From the IMG/VR virus record IMGVR_UViG_2687453449_000004, positions 1 through 20,029 of that record: DNA of 20,029 bases; one strand, written 5' to 3'. The stretch's first letter is position 1. The number at the start of each line of letters is the position of its first letter. Under the pieces are notes generated by a model. It saw only the letters and a list, made by a program, of their open reading frames with translations. It was not told the origin of the DNA and searched no databases. This document shows positions 2,518 through 20,029 of this stretch, in pieces. The stretch comes from a virus (taxonomy: Duplodnaviria > Heunggongvirae > Uroviricota > Caudoviricetes). A program made the position numbers and the translations under genes.

Positions 2518-4407
2518 ATGAAATCCGAAACGCTAACCATCCAGCAAATTTTCCAAAATCAACGACAATATCGTGTTCCATTCTATCAACGTGCCTACGT
2601 ATGGACGCAACGAAACCAATGGTCAGCTTTGCTGGAGGATATCTTCGAAAAAGCACAGAGCCGACTTTCGGGAACAAAACCAACCCCTCATTTCCTCGGC
2701 GCGGTGGTGCTGGAACCTCAACTCAAAAACAGCTTGTTAGGTGTAGATACCATACATATTATTGACGGCCAGCAACGTTTAACCACTCTTCAATATATTC
2801 TGGCATCCATTCGATTATCATTGCGTGCTACAGGCCTTTCTGAACTGGAAGGGTTAGTATTGACTTGCTTGAAAAATACAAACGAAGCAACGATGAGAAA
2901 TAAAAAGGTAGAATGCTTCAAACTGTGGCCAACTTTTCGAGATCAAACTCATTTTATTCAAAGTCTTAATGTTGATAATATTGACGATCTCCGTAATGTA
3001 TTTTCTGATAGCTTCACGCAACATGGTACGTTACGTAAACATTTCAACCACCCGCCGTCACTAGAGGCATTATGGTTTTTTACTGAAGCCTTTATAAAAT
3101 GGATTAAAATAGAAAACCGCTCACCACAAGAAAATGCTGTAGCACTAATTGAGGCTGTCTTGACGGATCTGAAACTGGTAAGCATATTTCTCGAAGCTGA
3201 AGATGATGCCCAAATAATTTTTGAAACATTAAATGGGCGAGGAGCGGAACTTCATGCAACGGATCTTATTCGCAACTATATCTTTATGTGCGCTGAGCAT
3301 GAAAATATTAATACTATTGAATTATATGAAAATGAGTGGAAGATCTTTGAAGATAAATACTGGTCGGAAAAGCAACGCCGTGGACGTATTAATAAACCAC
3401 GCATGGAGTGGCTTGTACATGCGACATTGCAATCAGAAAGGCAGCGTGAAATTGATCTGTCTCGCCTTTACAATGAGTATCGTGATTATGTAAGTAAGGA
3501 CTTGCCTTCACAACGAGCAGATCTGCAAGTAAAGCGCCTCAAACAATATGCATCACAATATAAAGAATTGGTTGGTGGTTTTGGCACAACCCCAATCTCA
3601 CACTTTGGACATCGCATCGCAGCCTATGATGTGACGACACTCTATCCGCTTGCTTTGTTCATTTCGATAGCTAACATCGCCGATGATGAGAAAGCAGCCA
3701 TGTATAATGATCTTGTCTCCTACGTAGTACGAAGATCCGTATGTGGCCTGACGCCAAAGAATTACAACAATGTATTTATGAATGTATTGCGACACTTGTC
3801 TAAAACGGAAATTTCCAGTATTGAGTTACGTAATATCCTCAATAGCTTAAATGGCGAAGCCTCACGTTGGCCTGGGGACTCAGAATTTCTCAACGCTTGC
3901 ATCAATGCTCCACTTTATCCTGGCAGGCTCGACGCACCGAAAATGCGCTCAATGTTAACGGAACTTGAAAGAGAACTTTGTCGCCAAGTGAAGACAGAAA
4001 AGCCTGATGTTCCAAATCTTTCTAATCTCGATATCGATCATCTTATGCCTCAAAGTTGGTATTCCTGTTGGCCTCTCGAAAATGGTCATATGGTGACAAA
4101 TTCAGATGCTACGGTAATGAACCAAATTGTTCTGTCTGGAACCGATCTTACCCCTGAACAGCTACTGGTAAGGAAACGGCAACAAGCGATAGCTACGTTG
4201 GGAAATCTAACTTTGCTTAACCTTAGCGTAAACCGTTCCGTTCAGAATGCTGTATTTCTGAAAAAACGTGATGCTCTCATCGTCCACACCAATCTACGAC
4301 TGAACATACCACTTATACTTAAGGATAAATGGGATGAGAGTGAAATACTGGAGCGAGGTAAAAAGTTGGGGGAAATTGCATTGAAAGTATGGCCAAAATA
4401 CGATTAA
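2518..4407 (+). CDS. GmrSD-family type IV restriction endonuclease (N-terminal DUF262/ParB-like NTPase domain, C-terminal DUF1524 His-Me finger nuclease domain)
   Basis: 629-aa ORF. N-terminal motifs FYQRAYVW and IIDGQQRLTTLQ (DGQQR signature) and C-terminal DIDHLMPQS ... LGNLTLLNLSVNRSVQN fit the DUF262+DUF1524 fusion architecture. AT-rich relative to the prophage structural genes. Confidence 0.8.
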   Translation: MKSETLTIQQIFQNQRQYRVPFYQRAYVWTQRNQWSALLEDIFEKAQSRLSGTKPTPHFLGAVVLEPQLKNSLLGVDTIHIIDGQQRLTTLQYILASIRLSLRATGLSELEGLVLTCLKNTNEATMRNKKVECFKLWPTFRDQTHFIQSLNVDNIDDLRNVFSDSFTQHGTLRKHFNHPPSLEALWFFTEAFIKWIKIENRSPQENAVALIEAVLTDLKLVSIFLEAEDDAQIIFETLNGRGAELHATDLIRNYIFMCAEHENINTIELYENEWKIFEDKYWSEKQRRGRINKPRMEWLVHATLQSERQREIDLSRLYNEYRDYVSKDLPSQRADLQVKRLKQYASQYKELVGGFGTTPISHFGHRIAAYDVTTLYPLALFISIANIADDEKAAMYNDLVSYVVRRSVCGLTPKNYNNVFMNVLRHLSKTEISSIELRNILNSLNGEASRWPGDSEFLNACINAPLYPGRLDAPKMRSMLTELERELCRQVKTEKPDVPNLSNLDIDHLMPQSWYSCWPLENGHMVTNSDATVMNQIVLSGTDLTPEQLLVRKRQQAIATLGNLTLLNLSVNRSVQNAVFLKKRDALIVHTNLRLNIPLILKDKWDESEILERGKKLGEIALKVWPKYD

Positions 4408-4658: not shown

Positions 4659-4994
4659 ATGATGCCATTTGCTCGTTATTTCTGCATTTTCATAAACGTT
4701 GGTTTGGGAGAAGGTGCTAACTGGGTTATGTTACCTAGAGGAATGATAATTCAGCGTGTTTATCTTGGATTTCCTGTCGGCACCAATGTAAGACACATAA
4801 CTTTCCCCCGGTCGTTTACAACAACGAACTATTCCATCTCAATTAACTGGAATGATATCGGTACTGTAACAACTGAAACACAATCTCCAGCAAATGTGGC
4901 GGTTGTTCATCAAACAAAATCATTAACAGGGGCCAGCATCTGGCAGGCAGGTCCCGGGGGATTTAATGTGGACATTATAGCGGTGGGGTATTGA
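4659..4994 (+). CDS. Tail-fibre C-terminal cassette lacking an N-terminal constant region (StfE-like silent alternative)
   Basis: 111-aa ORF that begins at or inside the pix-like site and ends 1 bp before a tfa gene. No fibre N-terminus and no obvious RBS. Placement matches the silent stf fragment in Din-type inversion systems. Confidence 0.5.
   Translation: MMPFARYFCIFINVGLGEGANWVMLPRGMIIQRVYLGFPVGTNVRHITFPRSFTTTNYSISINWNDIGTVTTETQSPANVAVVHQTKSLTGASIWQAGPGGFNVDIIAVGY
4687..4712. promoter_or_regulatory. pix/cix-like 26-bp invertase crossover site
   Basis: ttttcataaacgttggtttgggagaa; the reverse complement TTCTCCCAAACCAACGTTTATGAAAA has the two-half-site architecture (TTnTCnnAAACC) of Din-family sites. 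It lies about 55 bp from the pin start codon at the edge of the tail-fibre cassette. Confidence 0.6.
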
Positions 4995-4995
4995 T

Positions 4996-5487
4996 ATGTA
5001 CGTATGGAGCGCTAAAGCAAATGGCTTTTTCCCCATATCGGAGAAAGAAAAATTTGAGGCATCAGGTCTGTGGCCTGATGATGGTGTAATAGTCAGTGAG
5101 GAAGAACATAAAAAGTTATTTATGGATATTCCACCAGGAAAACAGATTGGAACACTGAATGGAAAACCAGCACTGATAGATATTCCTCAGCCGACCAAAA
5201 AGGAATTAATAGCTATTGCTGAAGTTAAAAAATCCCAATTACGGGAAAAAGCTGACAGTGAAATATCCTGGCGTCAGGATGCTGTTGATGCTGATATCGC
5301 AACTGATGAAGAAGCTACAACTCTCACCCAATGGAAGAAATACCGTGTGCTGCTGATGCGTGTTGATACGTCAACAGCACCCGATATTGAATGGCCTACG
5401 CCTCCGGCAGTTCAGGCCAGATGGCATCCGGCGCGGTGCTGGTATCTGTTGCCGTCACCGCGTCAATGTAATCCAGCACAGCGTTAA
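4996..5487 (+). CDS. Tail fibre assembly protein (TfaE-like), with an unusual C-terminal extension
   Basis: 163 aa; contains the conserved Tfa C-terminal peptide VDTSTAPDIEWPTPPA, then continues about 25 codons into the antisense of the convergent tfa gene. Confidence 0.7.
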   Translation: MYVWSAKANGFFPISEKEKFEASGLWPDDGVIVSEEEHKKLFMDIPPGKQIGTLNGKPALIDIPQPTKKELIAIAEVKKSQLREKADSEISWRQDAVDADIATDEEATTLTQWKKYRVLLMRVDTSTAPDIEWPTPPAVQARWHPARCWYLLPSPRQCNPAQR

Positions 5488-5998
5488 GGCGGGTTGTTTC
5501 TGCCTGCGTCAGTTTACGTCCGGCCTGCAATTTCAGCTGAATCAGACTGATGGAAGCCATTGCAGTATCAATCAGTGACTGGCGCTGTGCTTCTGCTGCA
5601 TCTACTGCGGCGCTATGCTGTGCTTCGGTATCCGTCACCCATTTCTCACCATCCCATTTATCGTATGGCGTTAACGGGGCGATAGTGGTTGTATTATCAG
5701 GGTAATCACCCGGAGCTGTGATTTCTTTTGATTCTCCTGTTTCGGTGCTAAAGACGATTTCACCGCGATGGTCTGGCACATATTCCCATGAGTTAAAATC
5801 TACAGATCGGCAGATTGCATAACCAGCTTTGTATGTGCCAGGGGCATCTAAACAGGAATATGCAGGGATACCGACACCCACAGCAAGATATTCAGTTGAT
5901 GTGGAAATATATTCCCGTGTTTCGCCATCATAGTTATAGACGGTAATATTCCCCGCCTTTGTAGCAATAAACTCGCTATTTAATACAGCGTTATCCAT
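5396..5998 (-). CDS. Tail fibre assembly protein (TfaP-like)
   Basis: 200 aa, N-terminus [33 protein letters not shown]-terminus TDTSTAPDAIWPELPEA, both typical of the lambda/Mu Tfa family. Start abuts the upstream fibre gene stop (coupled). Confidence 0.8.
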   Translation of the reverse strand: MDNAVLNSEFIATKAGNITVYNYDGETREYISTSTEYLAVGVGIPAYSCLDAPGTYKAGYAICRSVDFNSWEYVPDHRGEIVFSTETGESKEITAPGDYPDNTTTIAPLTPYDKWDGEKWVTDTEAQHSAAVDAAEAQRQSLIDTAMASISLIQLKLQAGRKLTQAETTRLNAVLDYIDAVTATDTSTAPDAIWPELPEA

Positions 5999-6939
5999 TA
6001 TGCAGCCCTCACGATATAGTTAAATGCAATATTCCGTGGACGGGTTTCATTTATCCCATATGCTGTTGTTCTCTGATTCCCGACAAAATATCCATTTGGA
6101 TTAGAAGATACAGAATAATCATCAAAATCAAGTGGGCTATCAGCACCCGGCGTCAGGCTTGCAATATATCCTCTTCCCATAACTTCTGATGCTGGTATTT
6201 CTTTTGTACGATAATCACTGACTCTGAAGAGCTGCCCTTGGTGGGTGTGTGATTCCACTCCTCCATTCTGAAGACTTAGCAAGGCACGTACAGCATCAAT
6301 ACCACGCCCGTCATCCCAGCCCCTAATAAACTCACCACGTAAATCAGGCAATTTATTTGTCGGATATTTAAAAATTACGTAGGTATGCGAAGGGCAGAGT
6401 TTGTTAAGCACACATTCGACGACGGTGTCGCCCCAGATACGCAGCGCGGAATCACAGGGATCGCCACATGTCATCCAGGTGCTGTTGGTGGCGGCTGGCA
6501 TGTTGACCTGCCAGTAATACCGCCATTCCGGCGCATTCACCGCGTCAGTACAGGACGATGAGCAGGTGAACGTGCTTTTGTCGTATCGCGTGATGGTGGC
6601 GTCTGGTCTGCCCAGGGCAGCAAGCTGTGCAAGGTAAAAATCCTCATTGATGCCGCCCGCCAGGTTAACCTTCGCATCCAGTCGTTGCTGACGCTGGCGA
6701 AGGGTCTGTGTTCCTGCGGGAATACATTCATCCGGCAGGCCGCACAGACGCTCCCAGCGATTTATCAGTTCGGTGGTGGTGCGCGGATCCAGCTCCCGCA
6801 TCAGGGCATCCGCACGCTGATGAACGCGGGTTAATGACTGTGCCGCACCGGCAATCGCCGGATCGCTGGCTGACCACGCCGGACCGGGCGGCAGCAGTGC
6901 CGACAACAGACGGATGTAATCATCGTTTGTCACGTCCAT
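5998..6939 (-). CDS. Mu gp48-like (DUF2313/YmfQ-like) tail protein continuous with a tail-fibre C-terminal tip domain
   Basis: 313-aa uninterrupted ORF. N-terminal about 195 aa ([22 protein letters not shown]...) resembles DUF2313 proteins. C-terminal part carries the tail-fibre motif [19 protein letters not shown]. Overlaps the upstream J-like gene by 10 nt. Confidence 0.7.
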
Positions 6940-7988
6940 GAAATCGTCCCCAGAACCGCCAGTTCATTTTTTGCAATGGAGATATTTTCCGCCGGTGCAA
7001 GCAACTGATGGCTGTATTCCCCGTTCGCACCGGAAATCGCTTCACTGATACGCGACACCTTCAGTTCTCCCTGCGGATAACCATCACGCAGCAGGAACGA
7101 ACGCAACTCCGCGGTGATGGCAGCCCGTATTTCCGGTGTATCCGGCGTCACACGGATATGAAAATCCACCGTATGCGCCACCGGCCTGAACACATACAAA
7201 TCAGAGCCTGCCACCGGGGCCAGTGGCCCGATATGTTGTCTTGCCGCCGTTTCCGTTGATTCTTCCGGAATGGGATTAATCAGGTCACTGCCGGCAATCA
7301 TCACACCGACAGTTCCCGTTCCCATCCAGTGACGGTATGTCCATGCGCGGGTAATGCCGGGCACTTCTTTAGCCCAGACGACATAGTCCCCGTCAGCCCC
7401 GCCCTGCGGCGTCCAGTAATACCGCTCAATGACGCGGGCGCGCCACGTTTCCAGATCTTCTGTATCAAATCCGCCTGTCAGGGTGTCAGTCACACCGGAA
7501 GACGGCAGACCATTCACCGGCGTGACCAGGATTAATGCCGTACCATCGTCAGCGTTACCGACCGCGCCTGCAGTTGAGCAGGCGATCGGCACGCGCAGGA
7601 CACCACCGGAGCTGGTTGCATCGGCAGTTGCCGTGTACTGAACCAGGTCATCGCGCTGAATCACGCTCCCGGCAGTCACCTTCAGGCCATCGCTGACACC
7701 TTCCCAGCGCATATACCCGCTGGCAGCCGTGGCCCCCTTGCGCGGACACCGTTTCATCGCAGCATGTCGCGCCAGCCAGGACTCATCGCACAGGTCAGGC
7801 AGCATGTTCATTGCCAGATAATCGATGTACCCGTAAACCGTATGCAGCGCCGCCGCATACACCTTTGCCCGCACGTCTTCATCCATGCGCCGGAGCGTGT
7901 CGCTGACGTCCAGCCTGGCGAATAAATCGTTACGGAGCATACTGATATTTTCTGCCAGCGTCGGGCGCTGAAATTCACTGTCCGCCAT
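6930..7988 (-). CDS. Baseplate J-like protein (Mu gp47 / P2 gpJ family; JayE-like)
   Basis: 352-aa ORF, GC-rich, positioned between gp46-like and gp48-like genes as in Mu tail modules. Confidence 0.8.
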
Positions 7989-8403
7989 GCGTTATCGCAC
8001 TCCACAGATCATCAAAAGAAATCATTACCGGTCCGTCACGACGCCAGAGAGTGATACTGTTACCCAGTTCATTAATCCCGGTGCGGCGGATATCCAGATC
8101 AATACGGGACACCACGCCGTCATCAATCATCCATTGCAGGCATTCGCGGATATATCCCCTTACCGTCTGCACCAGCTGATTGGTCAATTTGCTGCGCTGA
8201 AGCAGCCACAGTCGGGAGCCGTAACGGTCATTCTGTACCGCAGGCCAGGTATCCCCCCACCATCCCATCGGGACGTCGGCGTTGTCATCAGGCTCCGCCC
8301 GCCGCCAGGTAAACAGGGAAATCACCACGGCGCGGGTCAGCGGATCCAGCGGTGCGCTGGCGCAGGTGCGTTTACCGTTCACCGTCAGCCACAGTTCCAT
8401 CAT
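7975..8403 (-). CDS. Mu gp46-like baseplate protein
   Basis: 142-aa ORF with the motif GSRLWLLQRSKLT that I associate with the phage GP46 family; overlaps neighbours by a few nt (translational coupling). Confidence 0.6.
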   Translation of the reverse strand: MMELWLTVNGKRTCASAPLDPLTRAVVISLFTWRRAEPDDNADVPMGWWGDTWPAVQNDRYGSRLWLLQRSKLTNQLVQTVRGYIRECLQWMIDDGVVSRIDLDIRRTGINELGNSITLWRRDGPVMISFDDLWSAITHGGQ

Positions 8404-8948
8404 GCCTCCATCGCTTTATCAGGTTTGTCGGTGTTACTGCCCTGGCCGTTCTCTCTGTGACGATGCCCGTTATAGGCAAGCCGCATCGCTGACATGGTGG
8501 TGCCGCCGGAGTCGCACAGGTCTTTCACCTGTCCTGTCACTTCCAGATCCATTTCAAAACGTGCTTCAGGTGCATTGCGAAACGTGATCGTTTTACCTGC
8601 ACCGTCCACCACGATCCCCTCCCGGGTCAGCGTCACGGACTGCCCCTGATCGTCATAGACAGCCACCTCACCCGTCTGCAGCCCTTTCAGGCGGTAGCGC
8701 CGGTCCGACACCGTAACAACCACCGCATGAGAACGGTCGCCATCCGGAAACAACACCACCGCTTCCGCACCGCTGTTTGCCCTTGCGGTAAAACCGTAGG
8801 GTTCAAGATGTTCAACCCCGGCTTTGGGTTCACCGGCAATCAGGGACACATCCACGGTCTGACATTTCGTGGCGGCACTGATGCTTTTCACCACGGCCCG
8901 CCCAATCAGGCCGAGGAGTTGTCGCTGCATGGCTTCAATCGTCCTCAT
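8400..8948 (-). CDS. Baseplate assembly protein V / spike (Mu gp45-like)
   Basis: 182 aa; C-terminal MRLAYNGHRH-type motif and position between gp44-like and gp46-like genes. Confidence 0.7.
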   Translation of the reverse strand: MRTIEAMQRQLLGLIGRAVVKSISAATKCQTVDVSLIAGEPKAGVEHLEPYGFTARANSGAEAVVLFPDGDRSHAVVVTVSDRRYRLKGLQTGEVAVYDDQGQSVTLTREGIVVDGAGKTITFRNAPEARFEMDLEVTGQVKDLCDSGGTTMSAMRLAYNGHRHRENGQGSNTDKPDKAMEA

Positions 8949-10027
8949 CAGAACGGGTCCTCCTGTACTCTGGCTTTTTTCTTTTTCCGCGCGCCGGGGG
9001 CTTCGGGTTCAGGCAGATAAGCATCAGGTGGGCCGACACGGATTTCCGTCAGGGTGCCGTTCTGGTCCTGAGTAAACGTGACTTCCGAGACAAGCAGTTC
9101 GGTATTGTCGAAACCACAGACCGGATCGAAGACAATCACCCGCTGATTGGGCTGCCACAGCGTACCGTTACCCTGTCGCCAGCCCTGCACCACATAGGTG
9201 GTTTCATCCGTCCGCGCCGCCCGTTGTCGGGCTTCAAAGTCAGCACGCGCAATACAGCCTGCCCCCGTGGCCTGCCCTGTCTGCCTGATATACATCGGAC
9301 GGTAACGGGCAATAAATGCGTCCTCTGTGCGGGCCCGCAGCGCGGTGGTGGTGGCCTCACCGAAATCATCGTCGTTTCCGGCACGCTGCCCCGCCACCTG
9401 GTAAACAGAAAACCGCTCCCGGATACTCTTCTCCGTATCACAGGAAAGGATGTTTTCCCCAAGTACCAGCGCGGTATGTGCCCGCGTTGAGCCAATACCG
9501 CCAATCACCAGCCTGCCGTGCGGATCGTCGTAAGCCAGTGCCTGCTGCTGACCGAGTATTTTGTTGATTACCTCAATCACCGTTTCACCGTGATCAGGCT
9601 GGACGTCAGGAATAACACCCGACGGCGCACCGTTGTTCACCACCTCAATGCCGAAAGGCGCAGCAAGCGCCTGCGCAATCTGTACCAGCGATCGTCCGTT
9701 AAACTGTGTCGGTTCGGCTGCACAGTCAATCAGGTCAGCGGTCAGACTGCGTCCGGCAATACCGGTGCTGACCGAACGGGCATCGTAACGAACGGGCGTC
9801 GCCTCCACCCAGCCAGTGATCACCAGCTCATCACCAATCAGCACTTCCACTTTTGAACCGTTTTTAATGCGCGGCTGAAGCGTGGTGATACCCTCATCTC
9901 CCGGCCACTGGCGGGTGATCTCCACACTGAAATCCCGCGCCAGCCGTTCAATACCGGCACCGATGCGCACCGATGTCCAGCCATTCCACTCCCGGCCATT
10001 TACCCGTAGCGTGACGTTATCGTTCAT
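8948..10027 (-). CDS. Baseplate hub protein (Mu gp44 / P2 gpD-like late control D family)
   Basis: 359-aa ORF; size and position upstream of the V-like gene fit the gp44/gpD slot. Confidence 0.65.
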   Translation of the reverse strand: MNDNVTLRVNGREWNGWTSVRIGAGIERLARDFSVEITRQWPGDEGITTLQPRIKNGSKVEVLIGDELVITGWVEATPVRYDARSVSTGIAGRSLTADLIDCAAEPTQFNGRSLVQIAQALAAPFGIEVVNNGAPSGVIPDVQPDHGETVIEVINKILGQQQALAYDDPHGRLVIGGIGSTRAHTALVLGENILSCDTEKSIRERFSVYQVAGQRAGNDDDFGEATTTALRARTEDAFIARYRPMYIRQTGQATGAGCIARADFEARQRAARTDETTYVVQGWRQGNGTLWQPNQRVIVFDPVCGFDNTELLVSEVTFTQDQNGTLTEIRVGPPDAYLPEPEAPGARKKKKARVQEDPF

Positions 10028-10836
10028 TGCACTGGCACCTTCAGAGGGATCACCGGCACAAAGCCGGGATGTTTAATGGCATTACGCCGGATAATGTCCG
10101 CGTCACGCGCCGCGTTATCAAACCAGGTCGCCGCCAGCACCAGCGCGGGTAAAACCTCATCCGGCGTGCGCTGAATGATCCGTGCAGACTGTTCAAGGCG
10201 CGTGTTGATATCCGCATTCAGATCTGCTTTCACCCGGCGCAGCGCCAGAAATAGCGCATCACTGGTTGTACGGGACAACTCCTTATCAATTGCCGTATTC
10301 AGTGTGTCGCGAATGTCGGTCAGTTCCTCCCACGTTGGCAGGTCAACCGTGTTTTTCACCGCCGGTGCATTGTTCAGTGCCGGATGCGTGACGAAAGGCC
10401 AGCCGGTGCTCTGCGCGGGTGTTGTTGACTGCCCCACTGCAGCATTCTGCATCACCGCGGAAGTTGTTGGCGCAGGCAATCGGGTGACGGCATACGCCGC
10501 TTCGCTGATTGCGGTCGTACGAAGGGTGCTGGCAACCACGTTACGCTGCTGCGTCGCCGTGGCGGTGGTTTTACTGTCCGTTTTCCAGACGCCGCGCGGT
10601 TGCAGATCGCTGCCGAGGCTGACACCAGAAAGCGTTTTGATCATGGTGACCAGGTCGCTGGCGTTACCATAAAGGTGCTTCCCGGTACGCCACATTTTCT
10701 GCACCTGCTCAACAAAATTTTTGCCTGACGATGATGGCGTCACCGGTCTGCGCGGTTTCCTGCCAGGTGGTGGCACTGGTCTGGACAACCTTCGCCCATG
10801 TCCGGAACGCAACCGGGTATTGAGGCTCCACGCCAA
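10024..10836 (-). CDS. Tail protein remnant (Mu gp43 / tape-measure-like C-terminal region), probably 5'-truncated
   Basis: Track ORF of 270 aa whose first about 40 residues are Arg/Pro-rich low complexity and which overlaps the adaptor fragment by about 130 nt, so the annotated start is unlikely to be genuine. No sheath, tube or tape-measure genes lie upstream. Confidence 0.35.
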   Translation of the reverse strand: MAWSLNTRLRSGHGRRLSRPVPPPGRKPRRPVTPSSSGKNFVEQVQKMWRTGKHLYGNASDLVTMIKTLSGVSLGSDLQPRGVWKTDSKTTATATQQRNVVASTLRTTAISEAAYAVTRLPAPTTSAVMQNAAVGQSTTPAQSTGWPFVTHPALNNAPAVKNTVDLPTWEELTDIRDTLNTAIDKELSRTTSDALFLALRRVKADLNADINTRLEQSARIIQRTPDEVLPALVLAATWFDNAARDADIIRRNAIKHPGFVPVIPLKVPVQ

Positions 10837-10945
10837 AGTTATCCGCGGGCATATCCACCCGCTGGCGGATCAGGACGCGTTTATTCAGTTCACCGGGGTC
10901 CGGCAGAATGTAGGTTGCGCTGGTCTGCGCCTGACGAATTTTCAT
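10709..10945 (-). pseudogene. Head-tail adaptor (HK97 gp7-like) N-terminal fragment
   Basis: 78 aa (MKIRQAQTSATYILPDPGELNKRVLIRQRVDMPADNFGVEPQYPVAFRTWAKV...) resembles the N-terminal part of head-tail joining proteins but is shorter than the usual roughly 110 aa and is overlapped by the next ORF. Confidence 0.4.
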
Positions 10946-11265
10946 TGCGGAAAGTACCTGTACGGGCCGACAAGCCAGCCAAAACTCTGCGGCATGTCGA
11001 GTTTCTCCACTTCCGTAACCGACGAGCGGTTTTCGTAAAAATGGCTGATAAGCATCAGCATCCCCAGACGAATATCATCCGGCAGGTGCAGCCCGTCCGG
11101 ATCGCTGTCCGGAATGGTTTCATCCGGTGCATAGAGCTTCCGGTTCAGATACGTTTCCGTCCGCTTTTGCGCCGCACAGGCCAGCAGTTGCAGATGGCGG
11201 TCATCAGCATCGAAATCCTCATCCAGCCGGAGTTGGGCTTTAATCTCTTCCATTGTCAGAAGCAT
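10942..11265 (-). CDS. gp6-like head-tail connector protein
   Basis: 107 aa, N-terminus MLLTMEEIKAQLRLDEDFDADDRHLQLLACAAQKRTETYLNRKL typical of the gp6-like connector family. Confidence 0.6.
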   Translation of the reverse strand: MLLTMEEIKAQLRLDEDFDADDRHLQLLACAAQKRTETYLNRKLYAPDETIPDSDPDGLHLPDDIRLGMLMLISHFYENRSSVTEVEKLDMPQSFGWLVGPYRYFPQ

Positions 11266-11517: not shown

Positions 11518-11892
11518 TTACGCCGCTGCAATCTTCAGCAGTTTGATGGCCTGCGAATCGACCAGCATCCCGCCGGTGCGCTTGGTGGTATAAAAACCGA
11601 CAAACGGTTTATTGGTGTACGGGTCACGCAGAATGCGGGTGCCGATACGGTCAACGATGGTGTAACCCCGTTTGAAGTTACCAAATGCAATGGCTTTCGC
11701 ATCAGCGGCGATAGCCGTCCTGACGGTACTCATCCCCGCGCCAATCTGACGGGCAATGGTTTCAATTGATGGCCAACACACACCTTCGTCATTACTGAAA
11801 TCAGCCAGGCGGGCCATAATTGCCACGCTGGATAATTTCATGCCTGATGCAGCGCAACCATCCCATACATAGCCGGTTAATTTAGTGCTCAT
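11518..11892 (-). CDS. Helix-turn-helix replication-initiator-like protein (phage O / replisome-organiser N-terminal domain only)
   Basis: 124 aa containing LADFSNDEGVCWPSIETIARQIGAGMSTVRTAI, a winged-helix pattern typical of phage replication initiators. No helicase-loader or C-terminal domain follows. Confidence 0.45.
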   Translation of the reverse strand: MSTKLTGYVWDGCAASGMKLSSVAIMARLADFSNDEGVCWPSIETIARQIGAGMSTVRTAIAADAKAIAFGNFKRGYTIVDRIGTRILRDPYTNKPFVGFYTTKRTGGMLVDSQAIKLLKIAAA

Positions 11893-12061: not shown

Positions 12062-12240
12062 AGGACTGTCTCCTTCTGCCGGTTGAAATCACCCACAGCC
12101 CACTCAGCAAAGCTGTGGGTTACAATTTCCCTGTCACCTGGTACATTTACTGCATAGCAATACTCCACCTTCGCTTTTCCACCCGGTACAGGAAGCGCAA
12201 TCAGTTGCGAGCGACGGTAGTGTGTTGTTAAACTGTTCAT
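11902..12240 (-). CDS. Hypothetical protein; 3' half overlaps the DUF4222-like frame
   Basis: 112-aa track ORF. N-terminal about 55 aa look protein-like; C-terminal part is low-complexity and out of frame with the DUF4222-like gene. Confidence 0.3.
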
Positions 12241-12788
12241 GCGTTAGTTTCTCCACAGTCACGACACGCCACGGCGCCCGGAGCTGCACACTCGCGGGCG
12301 TCACTACTTTCTGAAACGCAAAAGATTTTGTAGACCAGTGCTGCATGCTCCTGCAGCTTCGAAATTGAGAGGTACAGCTCGTCGTTAATTGCTGTCTTCT
12401 CATGCGGTTCCACTACACCGTCTTCAATTGCTGAACGAATCTGTTTTGAATAACTGCCGATCTGTTCAATGACCTCCAGCAGGCGTTGGTTGATATCGGC
12501 GTTGTCCACATCCTCGACATCAGGAAGAGACACAAAGACGCCATTTGCAGACTGCGCCACAGCGTCAGCAATGAAGTGAGTTCCACCAGCACGTTGCAAA
12601 ACCATTGCCCATCCCAGCGGGAAAATCTGATCTCCATCGGCACGAAGGCGGTTAAATAATGCGTTCTCTGTTACATCCAGCCAGTCAGCAGCTTCAGCGT
12701 ACCCCCCCGGCAACGCTGCGATAGTTTTTCTGACAGCTTTCACGTACCACTCAGGCTGTTTTTCTACTTTCCAGTGATGCTTACCCAC
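12237..12788 (-). CDS. Phage regulatory protein (CII-like / YmfL-like)
   Basis: 183-aa ORF immediately downstream of cro in the rightward early operon position; coupled starts and stops. Confidence 0.45.
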
Positions 12789-13041
12789 GGTTCACCTCCT
12801 GTTCCTGTGGTTTAAACCCATTCTGGTTTTGGCTAGATTGAAAACGTGCCGGATAAAGAATCTGCATTTCGCTGACTTCACCCTTAAAAAAATTGGCTAA
12901 ACGTTCTGCAAGCTCGATAGATGGAATCTGCTCCAGCCTCTCAATACGACTCAACGTCGCTGGATTGACTTGAACACCCGCAGCAACATGCTGCAAAGTG
13001 AAACCATGCGCCTTACGCACATTTCGTAATGGTGATTGCAT
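12781..13041 (-). CDS. Cro-like HTH repressor (XRE family)
   Basis: 86 aa with HTH signature GFTLQHVAAGVQVNPATLSRIERLEQIPSIELAERLANFF; divergent from the cI-like gene. Confidence 0.75.
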   Translation of the reverse strand: MQSPLRNVRKAHGFTLQHVAAGVQVNPATLSRIERLEQIPSIELAERLANFFKGEVSEMQILYPARFQSSQNQNGFKPQEQEVNRG

Positions 13042-13138: not shown

Positions 13139-13831
13139 ATGAACATAGGAAACCGAGTCAGACAACTTCGCCAAGCGAAGAACATGAAAATCGCCGATCT
13201 CGCTGAAGCGATAGGAGTAGATGCGGCGAACATCTCGCGCTTAGAAACGGGTAAGCAAAAACAATTTACCGAACAAACACTGAGTAATATTGCCAAGAGC
13301 TTAGGTGTTGATATTGCTGATCTCTTTACCTCTGCCCACAAAAGTAATACTGTATATAAAAACAGTAATAATGAGGATGTTGCGCAGGTGAAGGATGTGT
13401 TCCGTATTGAAATGCTGGATATCAGTGCCAGTGCGGGAAATGGCCTTATCCAGGGCGGTGATGTCATTGATGTGATTCATGCCATCGAATACAGAACTGA
13501 TAATGCTGTATCAATGTTCGGCGGACGACCAGCCAATCACATCAAAGTTATCAACGTTCGTGGGGACAGTATGTGTCCAACCATTGAGCCAGGAGATCTC
13601 ATCTTCGTTGATGTCAGCATCAATCAGTTTGATGGTGATGGTATATATGTCTTTGGTTTTGATGACAAAATATACGTTAAAAGACTTCAAATGATTCCTG
13701 ACAAACTGCTGGTGATTTCTGATAACCAGATTTACCGTGAATGGGGAATTACTAGCGAAAACGAACACCGATTCATGGTCTTTGGAAAGGTCTTAATCAG
13801 TCAGTCGCAAACCCTTAAGAGACATAATTAA
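13139..13831 (+). CDS. CI-type prophage repressor (N-terminal HTH, C-terminal S24/LexA-like autopeptidase); CohE-like
   Basis: 230 aa; HTH at the N-terminus, Ala-Gly (ISASAGNG) candidate cleavage site, Ser nucleophile in GDSMCPTIEPGD and Lys in YVKRLQ. Confidence 0.9.
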   Translation: MNIGNRVRQLRQAKNMKIADLAEAIGVDAANISRLETGKQKQFTEQTLSNIAKSLGVDIADLFTSAHKSNTVYKNSNNEDVAQVKDVFRIEMLDISASAGNGLIQGGDVIDVIHAIEYRTDNAVSMFGGRPANHIKVINVRGDSMCPTIEPGDLIFVDVSINQFDGDGIYVFGFDDKIYVKRLQMIPDKLLVISDNQIYREWGITSENEHRFMVFGKVLISQSQTLKRHN

Positions 13832-13849: not shown

Positions 13850-13875
13850 CGGCCACCGAAAGGTGGCTTTTTATT
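13850..13875 (+). terminator. Rho-independent terminator after the repressor gene
   Basis: GCCACC-GAAA-GGTGGC followed by TTTTTA. Confidence 0.75.
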
Positions 13876-13884
13876 ACCTATAAA

Positions 13885-13940
13885 TTTGGATATCTCGCAA
13901 ATATCACTTGCATATCTCGCAATTTAATTTTATCTTTTGT
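13885..13940 (+). promoter_or_regulatory. Putative pL-like promoter with two direct ATATCTCGCAA repeats (oL-like)
   Basis: Repeats at 13890-13900 and 13912-13922 (22-bp spacing); TTGCAT -35-like and TATCTT -10-like hexamers at 17-bp spacing. Confidence 0.4.
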
Positions 13941-14089
13941 TCCAGACCAACTACAGGATTACAACAAAATCTGGTTGCAACACGGTGCATGTGTCGTAAG
14001 CAGTCAGTAAATGTCAAAAACGAACAGGCAGGACGCCCACGAAGTAGCCGCCTGGGGCATATGAAGTCCAGGATGATTCGTTAGCAACA

Positions 14090-14125
14090 AAAAAGCGCCC
14101 TACAGGACGCTTAGCTCTTTAACAA
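14090..14125 (+). promoter_or_regulatory. boxB-like hairpin followed by a boxA-like element (GCTCTTTAACAA): candidate antitermination (nut-like) site
   Basis: AGCGCCCTacAGGACGCT imperfect hairpin, then GCTCTTTAACAA at 14114-14125, matching the rrn/lambda boxA core; located in the leader of the early-left operon. Confidence 0.45.
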
Positions 14126-14170
14126 TCTGGTCCCCATCAACAAGTAACTGATAACTTGAGGAGATGTGAA

Positions 14171-14377
14171 ATGCACAAAACAGAACCCAAAATCGTCGCG
14201 CCTGGCTACACAGATGAGGAAATTTATGAGTGGATGACAAAGAAGCTGGCAGCTATAAACCAGCTTCGTGAAGTGCTGTCTTATCGACAGGAAACAATAG
14301 ACTCCTTAAAAAAACTGGATCAGGAAATCACGGTTTTATCACAGGATGTTACTTTAGATATTGTGCAGACAAATTAG
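14171..14377 (+). CDS. Small hypothetical protein (68 aa) in the early-left operon
   Basis: ATG at 14171 preceded by GAGGAG; the track ORF begins at an upstream TTG (14156). Not Arg-rich, so not an N-like antiterminator. Confidence 0.45.
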   Translation: MHKTEPKIVAPGYTDEEIYEWMTKKLAAINQLREVLSYRQETIDSLKKLDQEITVLSQDVTLDIVQTN

Positions 14378-14783
14378 GATCCCATTCATTTTCGTCAAAA
14401 TCATCAAAGTGATGAATTTGTGATCTCCAGTCTCGATAATCTAAAAATTTCTGGGCGGTTACGCTTATTTTATCAAGTGTGAGTTCATCCTGAATTGAAA
14501 GAAGAAGTTCATCAAATTTCATCTCATTAATCTGTTTTGGCATCCAGTGATGCTTCATCAGAATAAGGTGAACCAGAGCCTTTTTCCCATTCAACTGATT
14601 ATAGGGAGTGCCGAATTTCTTCCGGTGCTCATGTAAGACAAGGTCCAAAAGAGTAAGTAATGTTGCCCTTGATTCAACTTTGCTTATTTCGACTGATGAC
14701 ACTACCCCACTGATTTCAATGCCCCGATACTTTCCAACATTTTCACAGTGGGATTTGTACAGCGTATAGATATTACCGGACAT
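14349..14783 (-). CDS. Hypothetical protein (144 aa), oppositely oriented moron within the early-left region
   Basis: AT-rich ORF with AAGGA RBS; convergent 29-bp overlap with the preceding small gene; no recognisable motifs. Confidence 0.5.
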   Translation of the reverse strand: MSGNIYTLYKSHCENVGKYRGIEISGVVSSVEISKVESRATLLTLLDLVLHEHRKKFGTPYNQLNGKKALVHLILMKHHWMPKQINEMKFDELLLSIQDELTLDKISVTAQKFLDYRDWRSQIHHFDDFDENEWDPNLSAQYLK

Positions 14784-14798
14784 TTCTTTTCCTTTTGC

Positions 14799-14850
14799 GT
14801 TGTTGGGGATAACCAGATTAACCGAATCCTTGTTGTTGGGGAATAACCAG
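14799..14850. repeat. Two direct repeats TTGTTGGGGA(A)TAACCAG in the upstream region of the 144-aa gene
   Basis: Copies at 14799-14816 and 14830-14850, read directly. Confidence 0.8.
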
Positions 14851-14859
14851 GTCCACCTC

Positions 14860-15230
14860 GCCTGATGTGGCTAAAAGCAGGCACATAACAGCTAAGTATT
14901 TTCAACCAGAGAGAATCCTTAGCGTTGTGGTGAATGCGGCTCAGCGCACGCGGGTTAAGGTTGAGGCTGACAGTCGACCTTCTGTGGATACCCACCCGCC
15001 TGGTGTGCAACCTTCGCCAGGCACCGGGAGGCACCCGGCACCACAACTTTATGCTGTGTGTAGTCCTGGCGGTACCAGTTTGTACCCTTGCTTCCGGCTG
15101 GTACCGTCCTTTTTACAAAACAGAGAAGAGCATCACCGGACGACGGGCTCATAACCCAATCCATCCGGGCGGCTGCCACCGCAGGTGTTCTTCTCTGTTT
15201 TGTGGAGAAACTAATCGGCCTTGCAGGGTC
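14860..15230 (+). other. GC-rich non-coding block with strong secondary-structure potential (candidate structured RNA or processing site)
   Basis: No coherent frame, only mutually overlapping ORFs on both strands. 18-bp long-range stem 15115-15132/15186-15203 (one G-U) and 11-bp stem 15068-15078/15098-15108; further small GC hairpins. Confidence 0.35.
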
Positions 15231-15251
15231 GATATGATGAGGAGCAGCAAA

Positions 15252-18693: not shown

Positions 18694-19590
18694 ATGCAGT
18701 TGTATGCCTTACGTGTGTTAATGAGACCGCGCGATCCAGACCTCTTTTCGAAAGGAACTGTTCAGAAAGATATCTCTCATTTTGAAAATGCTATGGTTAT
18801 CGCTGCAAAAAATTTACACATGACGTCATCAACACCTTCCGTTCATAAGAAAACTAGTTACACCCTGAAATTGAGCATAAAACCTACTGATGGTGTTATG
18901 GCTGGAGTCATATCAAAGCTGCAAAAGATTAAAGGACATGATAAAGACTTTCGAGAGTACGATGTAGACAACTATCCACCTATCGTATGGATTTGGGACA
19001 AAGTAGAGCAGGTGTTACTGGTTGAGAGGAAAACCGCTGTTTTCAAGGATGCGCAACAAGTTGCTAAAGCGTTTGAAGATCTAGCCAATAACGACTATTT
19101 GGCTCAGTTAGGACTTAGAATATTTATAGAGCCTTGTCTTGAAATGGAAGATTTTTGGTCAGAATACCATAGGCTTCAATTTATCGACAAAGTCAGCTTT
19201 ACGCTGATTACTCCGAATATCTTCGGAAGCAGTAAGCAAGCGTTAACCAATGATTTACGGAAGCTTGAAAAAGATACCAATGCAAATACTGTGACCACTA
19301 TTTTTGAAAACAAAGATGGCAATTTGAAACTCAAAGGTTCTCATTGGGCTGAGACTCTTGTTGACTGGGTCAAAGATGGTGGCGGGTCATGGTTGATTAA
19401 AGGACGTAAGACACTCAAGTCAAAATCTACTACGGTATCCAGTAATCAGACAGCCAAAATCGTGCTGATCGAAGGTGAGATATCAGAAATTGAACTTGAT
19501 GGCTACTCAGCAAATGATATTAAAGAGATCATAGCATTACATCAAAACAGGTATACGTTCAAAAATGCAAAATCTAACTGTCTGGATTAA
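18694..19590 (+). CDS. Hypothetical cytoplasmic protein (298 aa), first gene of an int-adjacent cargo operon
   Basis: AGGAG RBS; AT-rich; no Walker A, HEXXH, HD or nucleotidyltransferase motifs seen, so not Lit. Confidence 0.55.
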   Translation: MQLYALRVLMRPRDPDLFSKGTVQKDISHFENAMVIAAKNLHMTSSTPSVHKKTSYTLKLSIKPTDGVMAGVISKLQKIKGHDKDFREYDVDNYPPIVWIWDKVEQVLLVERKTAVFKDAQQVAKAFEDLANNDYLAQLGLRIFIEPCLEMEDFWSEYHRLQFIDKVSFTLITPNIFGSSKQALTNDLRKLEKDTNANTVTTIFENKDGNLKLKGSHWAETLVDWVKDGGGSWLIKGRKTLKSKSTTVSSNQTAKIVLIEGEISEIELDGYSANDIKEIIALHQNRYTFKNAKSNCLD

Positions 19591-20029
19591 AGCTATAGCT
19601 ACCTTCTTTTTGTGCTTAGCATTAGCATCGACTGATAAAACCATTTATACCTTACTTGAGCAGGCTTCTGCTGGAGTAATAGGTTCAATACTTGGAGGTA
19701 TTGCCGCAGGTATCTCCGTTATCTTCGGAATTTTGGCTGTCATTAATAAGGGCGAGAAAAGCACAGACTTTACGGACTATTTAGATAGTTTAGAATTAGA
19801 TTTGAAATTACTGGTCATGTGTCTGGCAGTAACAATCTTCCTTCCCTATTTACGTAATTATGACATACCACTAGTAAATTATCCTCAGCACGAATTTATC
19901 CCTTCTAAAGGCAAGCTATTTACTGCTTTAGAACTTTTTGCTATCGTGCTATCTCTTAACCTCATTGCAGAAGTGATTAGCTGCATGATTTTAGTGGTTA
20001 AAAAAAGTTTCAAAATTGAATCAAAGTGA
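19565..20029 (+). CDS. Small integral membrane protein (at least 4 predicted TM helices), 3' end outside window
   Basis: Hydrophobic stretches WIKAIATFFLCLALAS, AGVIGSILGGIAAGISVIFGILAVI, LKLLVMCLAVTIFLPYL and LFTALELFAIVLSLNLIAEVISCMILVV; start overlaps the upstream gene by 26 nt; no stop before the window end. Confidence 0.55.
   Translation: MQNLTVWIKAIATFFLCLALASTDKTIYTLLEQASAGVIGSILGGIAAGISVIFGILAVINKGEKSTDFTDYLDSLELDLKLLVMCLAVTIFLPYLRNYDIPLVNYPQHEFIPSKGKLFTALELFAIVLSLNLIAEVISCMILVVKKSFKIESK

Follow-up and report, generated by a model that had tools for sequence, protein, structure and literature searches.

What is a leftward gene for a 144-aa protein doing inside the rightward early operon of a lambdoid prophage? 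The question is raised by IMG/VR virus record IMGVR_UViG_2687453449_000004, of which positions 1 to 20,029 have been analysed ("the window" here means that whole stretch of 20,029 nucleotides). Between its repressor gene and yfdP-yfdQ lie two small convergent genes, here called A (plus strand) and B (minus strand). Comparison of their sequences across several genera identifies them as an old, co-diverging convergent module, which pairs a YdfC-like protein (A) with a member of the ECs1072 family (B). The family of gene B and one expressed member of it have already been catalogued, and the gene itself is not new. To our knowledge, the convergent ECs1072/YdfC module, its two alternative homes next to lytic promoters, and the promoter dock that it shares with cassettes bounded by inverted repeats are undescribed. 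The answer that we prefer, held tentatively and with slightly less than even confidence, is by analogy with sieB: B would serve the lysogen, and would be turned down when transcription from PL (or from a Q-modified PR') sweeps through it.

The convergent pair and its transcription signals

The pair and the signals around it are laid out as follows.

13851-13868: cI terminator
13886-13900 and 13908-13922, plus strand: two operator-like repeats, TTGsATATCTCGCAA, a repeat family found in the window
13908-13936, plus strand: putative PL, TTGCAT-17 nt-TATCTT, predicted from the sequence just past the cI terminator and overlapping the operator-like repeats
14112..14093, minus strand: canonical intrinsic terminator, AAGCGTCCTGTAGGGCGCTT then TTTTTT, for leftward transcription leaving the cassette
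14114-14125, plus strand: exact boxA core GCTCTTTAACAA in the PL leader, the single exact match in the window
14171-14377, plus strand: gene A, 68 aa, the first gene downstream of PL, with its ATG behind GAGGAG
14267..14242, minus strand: stable hairpin and U-rich tail, inside the A coding sequence and 82 nt beyond the B stop
14349-14377: convergent overlap of the A and B 3' ends, 29 bp
14349-14783, minus strand: gene B, 144 aa (435 bp), antisense to the PL operon, with its ATG behind AAGGA

The original prediction, made from the letters of the window, had placed a 144-aa minus-strand gene in a rightward operon, overlapping the 3' end of a 68-aa gene by 29 bp. Both statements hold, and PGAP annotates the identical two coding sequences in an E. 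coli chromosome, NZ_CP110858, that is 99.9% identical across 1.9 kb. The position 14156 then given for the 68-aa gene is that of an in-frame upstream TTG; the open reading frame (ORF) itself is real and its ATG lies at 14171. Gene B was also described as AT-rich, which it is only modestly, with a GC content of 0.38 against 0.42-0.56 for its neighbours; the alternative cassettes found at the same site (see below) are similar, at 0.39-0.43. Reading rightward, the order is cI, terminator, operators and PL, A, the antisense B, a GC-rich non-coding stretch, yfdP, yfdQ (DUF2303), an HD phosphohydrolase gene, xis and int. This order, from cI/PL through int, agrees with the early-left operon proposed earlier, which the putative PL would drive.

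The hairpin at 14267..14242 is likely, from its sequence, to form the first 3' end of the B mRNA; a 66-nt fragment holding it has a folding energy of -21.4 kcal/mol (z -3.8). The terminator at 14112..14093 belongs to the shared backbone and is kept in 8 of 9 cassette types, the SfV type being the one that differs. A plus-strand terminator-like site within B (14452-14467) is weak (-7 kcal/mol, z -1) and was set aside. In most sister backbones the boxA is the full consensus, CGCTCTTTAACAA. The role of boxA in antitermination is known from the lambda nut sites and from rrn boxA, and the order of hairpin, then boxA, at 14093-14125 resembles that of rrn leaders; by this analogy the element suggests Nus-dependent antitermination of the early-left operon.

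Two protein families

Protein A is an acidic helical protein with an isoelectric point of 4.8, assigned to PHROG 1744. By tblastn 97% of its length aligns with ydfC of phages Tritos, Evi and PPompW, at 39-41% identity (E 2e-9), and in the family alignment it carries the common motif EPxI..G/D.(S/T)(D/E)E(L/I)..W(M/L). Pfam and NCBIfam hold no curated hidden Markov model (HMM) that matches it. It is the first ORF past the operators/PL and boxA, and ydfC of Tritos lies in the same position class. By these sequence comparisons A is a YdfC-family small early protein. In the dicBF operon of the Qin prophage and phage Tritos, YdfC shares with A both the approximately 40% identity and the promoter-proximal place in a repressor-controlled early-left operon; ydfC there, however, has no gene antisense to it, and dicF and dicB come next. 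YdfC itself has no assigned function (PMC5069750).

Protein B, in which no recognisable motif had been seen, belongs to two families catalogued without a function. It scores 157.8 bits against a cutoff of 70 with NCBIfam NF033230, "ECs1072 family phage-associated protein" (B residues 4-144 on model positions 2-142), and matches PHROG 5286 over residues 1-144 of 144 with an E-value of 1.5e-90. An exhaustive HMMER search gave 76 representatives at 50% identity; with few exceptions, the full-length members have a single domain and measure 143-161 aa. Residues L50, R54, L64, G66, A69, H72 and W134 are near-invariant in the family. B is a soluble protein, with a basic centre rich in His, Arg and Lys and an acidic tail. 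Its AlphaFold2 model is all-helical, with a predicted local distance difference test score (pLDDT) of 94.7 and a predicted template modelling score of 0.89. On this model the helical fold is apparently new. Sequence searches of the PDB with profiles of 4 and 47 sequences gave no match, and Foldseek returned nothing below E 0.5, either for a first model (pLDDT 78) against the PDB or for the high-confidence model against BFVD. The structure and profile searches proposed earlier for these proteins have thus left B with no convincing structural relative, the profiles yielding family names only.

Several more specific identities were considered and dropped. Scores of B with HD, HDOD and HD-GYP models are marginal, with 70-80 of the 144 residues aligned. 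Conservation falls on H53-R54 and H72, which do not make up an H...HD...D metal site, and Foldseek was negative. B matched no Pfam family at E<=0.1 and no PADLOC model at E<=1, and homology to SieB was rejected on these grounds; known defence systems were rejected for A and B alike, with 0 families of PADLOC-DB v2 matched at E<=1. The superinfection-exclusion or toxin function suggested for B in the original prediction has no PADLOC, Pfam or structural match in its support. A search of viral contigs for loci starting from family members P0017 and P0063 returned none.

Conservation of the pair and its two homes

Conservation of the pair in other genomes, put forward earlier as a check, is real. 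Distant homologues of B, 26-32% identical to that of the window, were drawn from viral contigs, phage records and a Serratia genome. A convergent YdfC-like partner is present in loci L006 and L129-L138, in ST64B, in Klebsiella phage KPP5665-2 and in L142. The 3' ends overlap in all 11 sampled pairs from Escherichia, Salmonella, Klebsiella and Serratia, by 29-86 bp overall and by 40-86 bp in L129-L138, ST64B, KPP5665-2 and L142. Across the 11 pairs, the pairwise identities of A and of B are correlated (r=0.88); distant pairs are 14-38% (A) and 26-32% (B) identical to the pair of the window.

The pair occurs in two contexts. The first is the slot from cI/PL to yfdP-yfdQ, as in the window; the second lies in the late operon, from the Q antiterminator to the holin gene, and is seen in ST64B, Klebsiella, Serratia and L142. 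In both, A has the orientation of the lytic promoter and comes first downstream of it, while B is antisense. In ST64B a PR'-like promoter, TTGAAA-16-TATGAT, lies directly past Q, and a tR'-like terminator lies past the antisense B. A B-terminating hairpin with a U-tract inside the A coding sequence is found in the window, L131 and ST64B.

The partners also occur apart. A is absent from L005, whose B is 56% identical to that of the window, and from the P0053 subfamily (L143-L154), and Qin/Tritos-type operons have ydfC with no B. In the E. albertii locus L006 an A N-terminus that is 98% identical is joined to a B that is 72% identical. The occurrence of B alone in some lineages and of A alone in others makes an obligate toxin-antidote pair unlikely. 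It also fits the view that A and B are mere neighbours, B being a selfish moron at the 3' end of an ordinary early gene and their linkage involving no coupling, as does the recombination break between the two genes in L006. We consider this view unlikely. An intact pair recurs in two unrelated contexts, proximal to PL and to PR', with the overlap and the B terminator inside A retained; and a useless A should decay in the late-operon context, yet its motif is conserved there.

Expression of the ST64B member

Does a lysogen express such a gene? Owen et al. 2020 (PMC7067206) single out STMMW_20121 of the Salmonella prophage ST64B as a candidate accessory or regulatory gene. According to that study, STMMW_20121 occupies 2090066-2090500 (435 bp) and STMMW_20131 occupies 2090430-2090789 (360 bp), and the pair lies between the Q gene (624 bp) and the holin gene. 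The ST64B record (L140, NC_004313) contains an unannotated ECs1072-family ORF at 2345-2779, where only the opposite-strand sb50 is annotated. The sizes of 435, 360 and 624 bp and the 71-bp overlap match this ORF, sb50 and Q, which makes STMMW_20121 a member of the family. The ST64B protein is 27% identical to B of the window, and PGAP gives members of its 90%-identity cluster the ECs1072 family name.

By RNA-seq in the same study (PMC7067206), STMMW_20121 is present at 60-270 transcripts per million (TPM) in 16 of 17 conditions and has its own mapped promoter, sb50 (the A-like STMMW_20131) is at 23-258 TPM, and the holin and Q genes are low. One member of the family is therefore a moron that is expressed in lysogeny from its own promoter. 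Like B, STMMW_20121 encodes 144 aa, lies antisense to lytic genes and overlaps tail-to-tail with a YdfC-like gene (sb50/STMMW_20131); it differs in lying between Q and holin in the late operon and not after PL, and in having a partner that is also expressed in the lysogen.

That both partners are transcribed together in the late-operon context argues against all-or-none mutual interference. Of the mutual antisense interference first proposed for the pair, the overlap of transcripts stands, since the B terminators lie inside or beyond A; strong mutual exclusion does not, both genes being at roughly 20-270 TPM together in ST64B lysogens. Joint expression there also suits mere neighbours.

Expression of both genes in ST64B lysogens would likewise suit a toxin-antitoxin or abortive-infection pair in which B is the effector and A neutralises it by protein contact, as would the small size, adjacency and co-divergence of the genes and a location typical of prophage defence morons. 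Such a pair is nevertheless improbable, as the organisation is convergent and not operonic, B occurs with no A in at least two lineages, A stands alone in dicBF operons, and neither protein resembles any model of a toxin, an antitoxin or a defence protein. A type II toxin-antitoxin system in particular was rejected, the genes being convergent, B occurring with no A, and neither protein having a toxin or antitoxin domain.

A putative promoter dock with interchangeable cassettes

The site itself holds other cargo in related phages. SfV and PhiR29_1 keep the flanks of the window (14016-14082 or 14016-14130 to the left of the cassette, and 14799 or 14853 and beyond to its right) and have different DNA between them. 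When the right flank was used to scan viral contigs, 105 instances of at least 9 types were counted: the A/B module (62), a coiled-coil and zinc-ribbon protein (17 + 5), a two-transmembrane protein (8 + 5), a signal-peptide protein with a weak LprI match (4 + 1), a 167-aa protein with a 97-aa partner (2) and the SfV type (1). The main cassette gene is on the minus strand in 8 of 9 types; the SfV type also carries the annotated plus-strand orf33. The oppositely oriented moron of the original prediction is borne out by these relatives (SfV, PhiR29_1 and at least 7 further types), which retain the flanks around other cassettes. The cassette proteins other than A and B gave no informative Pfam match, and the five that were tested matched 0 PADLOC families. 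That single-gene cassettes occupy the same site is a further point in favour of A and B being mere neighbours.

The repeats and promoter elements at the cassette boundaries are these.

14124-14143: left arm of the cassette inverted repeat, AATCTGGTCCCCATCAACAA, one of a repeat pair in the window
14800-14819: inner direct repeat and right arm of the cassette inverted repeat, TTGTTGGGGATAACCAGATT, overlapping, on the minus strand, the putative -10 and the start of the B 5' untranslated region (UTR)
14833-14850: outer direct repeat, TTGTTGGGGAATAACCAG, holding the putative -35 on the minus strand and constant in almost all cassette types
14853..14883, minus strand: conserved upstream element TGCCTGCTTTTAGCCACATCAGGCGAGGTGG, matching the promoter region upstream of ECs1072-family genes in other backbones, with the -10 absent here

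The two direct repeats noticed upstream of B, TTGTTGGGGATAACCAG at 14800-14816 and its partner at 14833-14850, are the only two matches in the window (expected from 100 shuffles: 0). They had been taken as a feature of B and turn out to belong to the hotspot backbone that is common to unrelated cassettes. The idea that protein B binds them specifically was rejected, since unrelated cassettes have them and B in other backbones lacks them. All cassette types share the upstream region to GGTTAATCTGG; on the far side, boxA and, in 8 of 9 types, the leftward terminator are common to the cassettes.

When upstream and promoter sequences were compared side by side, by eye, ECs1072-family genes elsewhere were found to be preceded by a unit consisting of TTCACC, 16 nt, TGgTATCTT and a short 5' UTR ending in CCAAGAAGG. 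In window-type backbones this promoter-like unit occurs two to three times in tandem, in diverged form, and the "direct repeats" are the junctions between units. From this comparison we infer a working B promoter made up of TTCCCC (14843-14838), 17 nt and TAATCT (14820-14815). A scan for consensus promoters detected none on the minus strand ahead of B, and the putative one is weak by consensus.

A third, inverted copy of the repeat, at 14124-14143, closes the other side of the cassette. Inverted repeats of 12-19 nt, placed identically, bound the cargo in 6-7 of the 9 types, a weaker one of 9 nt does so in one further type, and the SfV type has none. Their outer part does not vary between types (TTAACAATCTGG / CCAGATTAACC); the 6-13 nt further in are specific to each cassette and yet mutually complementary (in the signal-peptide type at 13/13 positions, in the zinc-ribbon type at 18/19). 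The alignment also shows a possible duplication of 3 bp, AAC, beside the cassette. Around the A/B module in other backbones this inverted repeat is not found. The inverted repeats may form an RNA stem, either by pairing the 5' and 3' ends of the moron mRNA or by looping out the cassette in the PL transcript, or they may be the terminal repeats of a transposase-less insertion cassette; the G-U pairs offered too few informative mismatches to tell the strand of such a stem. An invertible switch (fimS-like, with TTGGGG repeats) was rejected, as all 62 of the A/B cassettes found in viral contigs lie the same way round (0 inverted), and integron attC-like sites were rejected because the core motifs, judged from the sequence, do not fit.

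The arrangement resembles the defence hotspots of P2 and P4 (Rousset et al. 2022, PMC9122126) and bstA next to the BTP1 repressor in having a fixed backbone site, next to the immunity region, that takes many alternative small cargo genes. It differs in that the cargoes here match no known defence model, share one promoter dock and in nearly all cases one terminator, and are bounded by cassette-specific inverted repeats.

In two viral contigs (L143 2959-4502 and L152 171-2041) the PL-proximal hotspot holds two or three stacked morons in the same antisense orientation. The second moron of L143, a two-transmembrane protein gene, has a further repeat/promoter unit directly in front of it, which suggests that the promoter dock can be reiterated.

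The constant position of the dock bears on another explanation, that the module regulates the prophage's lytic switch: leftward transcription starting at the B promoter, with the B protein perhaps contributing, would damp leaky transcription from PL or PR' at the start of the antiterminated operon, and this damping would stabilise lysogeny or tune the response to induction. B is always directly past PL/boxA or PR' and always antisense, and its transcript spans A and can extend as far as the boxA region, where the terminator at 14112..14093 follows; moreover, "accessory or regulatory" was left open for STMMW_20121 (PMC7067206). We nevertheless judge the explanation unlikely, for unrelated proteins fill the same dock in sister phages, so that no specific regulatory protein is required, the strong conservation of the protein fold suggests a function of the protein itself over and above transcription, and the sense partner in ST64B is still well expressed.

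A proposed sieB-like role for B

The reading that we prefer, in which B serves the lysogen, has its model in sieB. That gene lies antisense inside the PL early-left operon and has its own promoter; when the resident phage itself grows lytically, an antisense RNA derived from PL neutralises it. Exclusion of the SieB type cuts short the lytic development of superinfecting phages. SieB, of about 190 aa, is located in the membrane, and an internal product of the gene is called Esc. The sieB/sas systems of P22 and lambda were reportedly treated by Ranade and Poteete in 1993. B resembles sieB in its orientation antisense to the PL operon, and the proposed logic would be the same; it differs in being a soluble, helical 144-aa protein with a separate convergent partner gene and no sequence similarity. 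Antisense orientation is seen in the window itself; a gene's own promoter and lysogenic expression are seen only in the ST64B homologue, the promoter in the window being a predicted one. The Salmonella study (PMC7067206) mentions the sas antisense RNA. The sieB gene is expressed from the prophage.

In detail, B would be transcribed leftward, against the PL operon, from a promoter in the shared backbone dock upstream of it, and its mRNA would end at the hairpins in or just past A, making it antisense to A. The PL transcript would run through A and then, antisense, through all of B. B would work for the lysogen, most likely either in conflict with other phages or by tuning the prophage's lytic switch, and the firing of PL would lower it through convergent transcription and the pairing of the two RNAs, perhaps with the aid of protein A. 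A bolder version is rather unlikely: the ECs1072/YdfC pair would be a two-gene prophage system not recognised before, with B as a new-fold effector, perhaps binding nucleotides or nucleic acid and acting against competing phages or on the lytic switch, silenced or neutralised by its convergent partner once the resident phage enters lytic growth, and the PL site, with its common promoter and terminator and its cassettes bounded by inverted repeats, would be an expression dock for swapping such cargo among lambdoid phages.

Prophage genes that are on in dormancy are the usual source of new defence, exclusion and host-modifying functions. The ECs1072 family has diverged forms in Salmonella, Klebsiella and Serratia prophages, and its Salmonella member is expressed in lysogeny. 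It is a concrete target for two reasons: its gene is paired convergently with a YdfC-like one, which itself counts among the E. coli "y-ome", and it holds a fixed position at the heads of lytic operons. Pairing and position lead to testable predictions on the switching off of an accessory gene when a prophage enters lytic growth. The promoter dock, with its cassettes bounded by inverted repeats, is a natural system for the study of moron exchange and expression.

The prophage and its other features

The window is a defective lambdoid prophage of E. coli, of the SfIV/SfV type. Phages Kati, SfIV and others are about 99% identical to it; SfIV and Kati, which are active phages, are among the carriers of the A/B module. 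The exact A/B form is present in 271 of 5426 complete E. coli genomes (~5%). The prophage is a deletion remnant that retains its immunity region, A/B module and early-left operon whole, the replication, Q, lysis and terminase genes and most of the head and tail genes being gone. The immunity genes not yet listed are as follows.

12237-12788, minus strand: CII/YmfL-like gene
12781-13041, minus strand: Cro-like helix-turn-helix gene
13139-13831, plus strand: CI repressor, with helix-turn-helix and S24 peptidase domains

In the related NC-SV prophage a small RNA (sRNA), svsR, is reported to lie at the 3' end of cI and to lower phage adsorption (PMC12803456, a paper of 2026). With this position it has no bearing on gene B. 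The cI of the window belongs to a different immunity type.

A different RNA abuts the pair on the right.

14894-15116, plus strand: structured RNA similar to the sRNA family STnc100/PasD, abutting the promoter region of the pair and lying outside the pair

The covariance model of STnc100 (Rfam RF02076) matches it over its full length with 43.1 bits (E 1.2e-7), against a gathering threshold of 47; at gathering thresholds Rfam gave no match over the whole window. The fold of 14851-15251 has a z-score of -6.0 on the plus strand and -2.1 on the minus strand. A "frameshifted hypothetical protein" annotated by PGAP (window 14927-15237) and the SfIV ORFs SfIVp34 and SfIVp35, all lying over the RNA, are probably spurious. 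STnc100 and PasD have been treated as prophage sRNAs (bioRxiv 10.64898/2026.05.13.724894). The GC-rich stretch 14850-15250 was also considered as part of the module and rejected, since only a 26-nt block is common to it and the Klebsiella late-region locus; it is better seen as an STnc100-like RNA of the backbone. A tRNA scan of the window found none.

The deletions have left visible junctions. An ORF at 11518-11892 (minus strand) fuses a replication-initiator-like HTH_36 N-terminus to the final ~60 residues of a major capsid protein, and at 5396-11265 (minus strand) a head-tail connector gene is followed almost at once by Mu-like baseplate genes (gp44/45/46/47/48-like) and tail-fibre assembly genes. 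Opposed tail-fibre C-terminal and assembly genes lie at 4659-5998, with Gp53-like_C and Caudo_TAP domains on the plus strand and Caudo_TAP on the minus strand, a layout that looks typical of an invertible tail-fibre segment.

Adjoining the tail-fibre end of the prophage, in AT-rich surroundings (GC 0.28-0.44), a gene at 2518-4407 (plus strand) encodes a 629-aa GmrSD-type type IV modification-dependent restriction enzyme (PADLOC mREase_IV, 1516 bits; Pfam GmrSD_N and GmrSD_C). Genes of this kind are known for defence; this one lies either next to the same element or inside it. At the opposite end, just past the integrase gene, an AT-rich segment (18694-20029, plus strand; GC about 0.38) encodes a 298-aa protein and an overlapping membrane protein of at least 154 aa that runs off the window and, from its sequence, is probably multi-pass. 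Neither of the two has a Pfam or PADLOC match; these genes may be cargo of the attachment-site end or belong to a flanking island.

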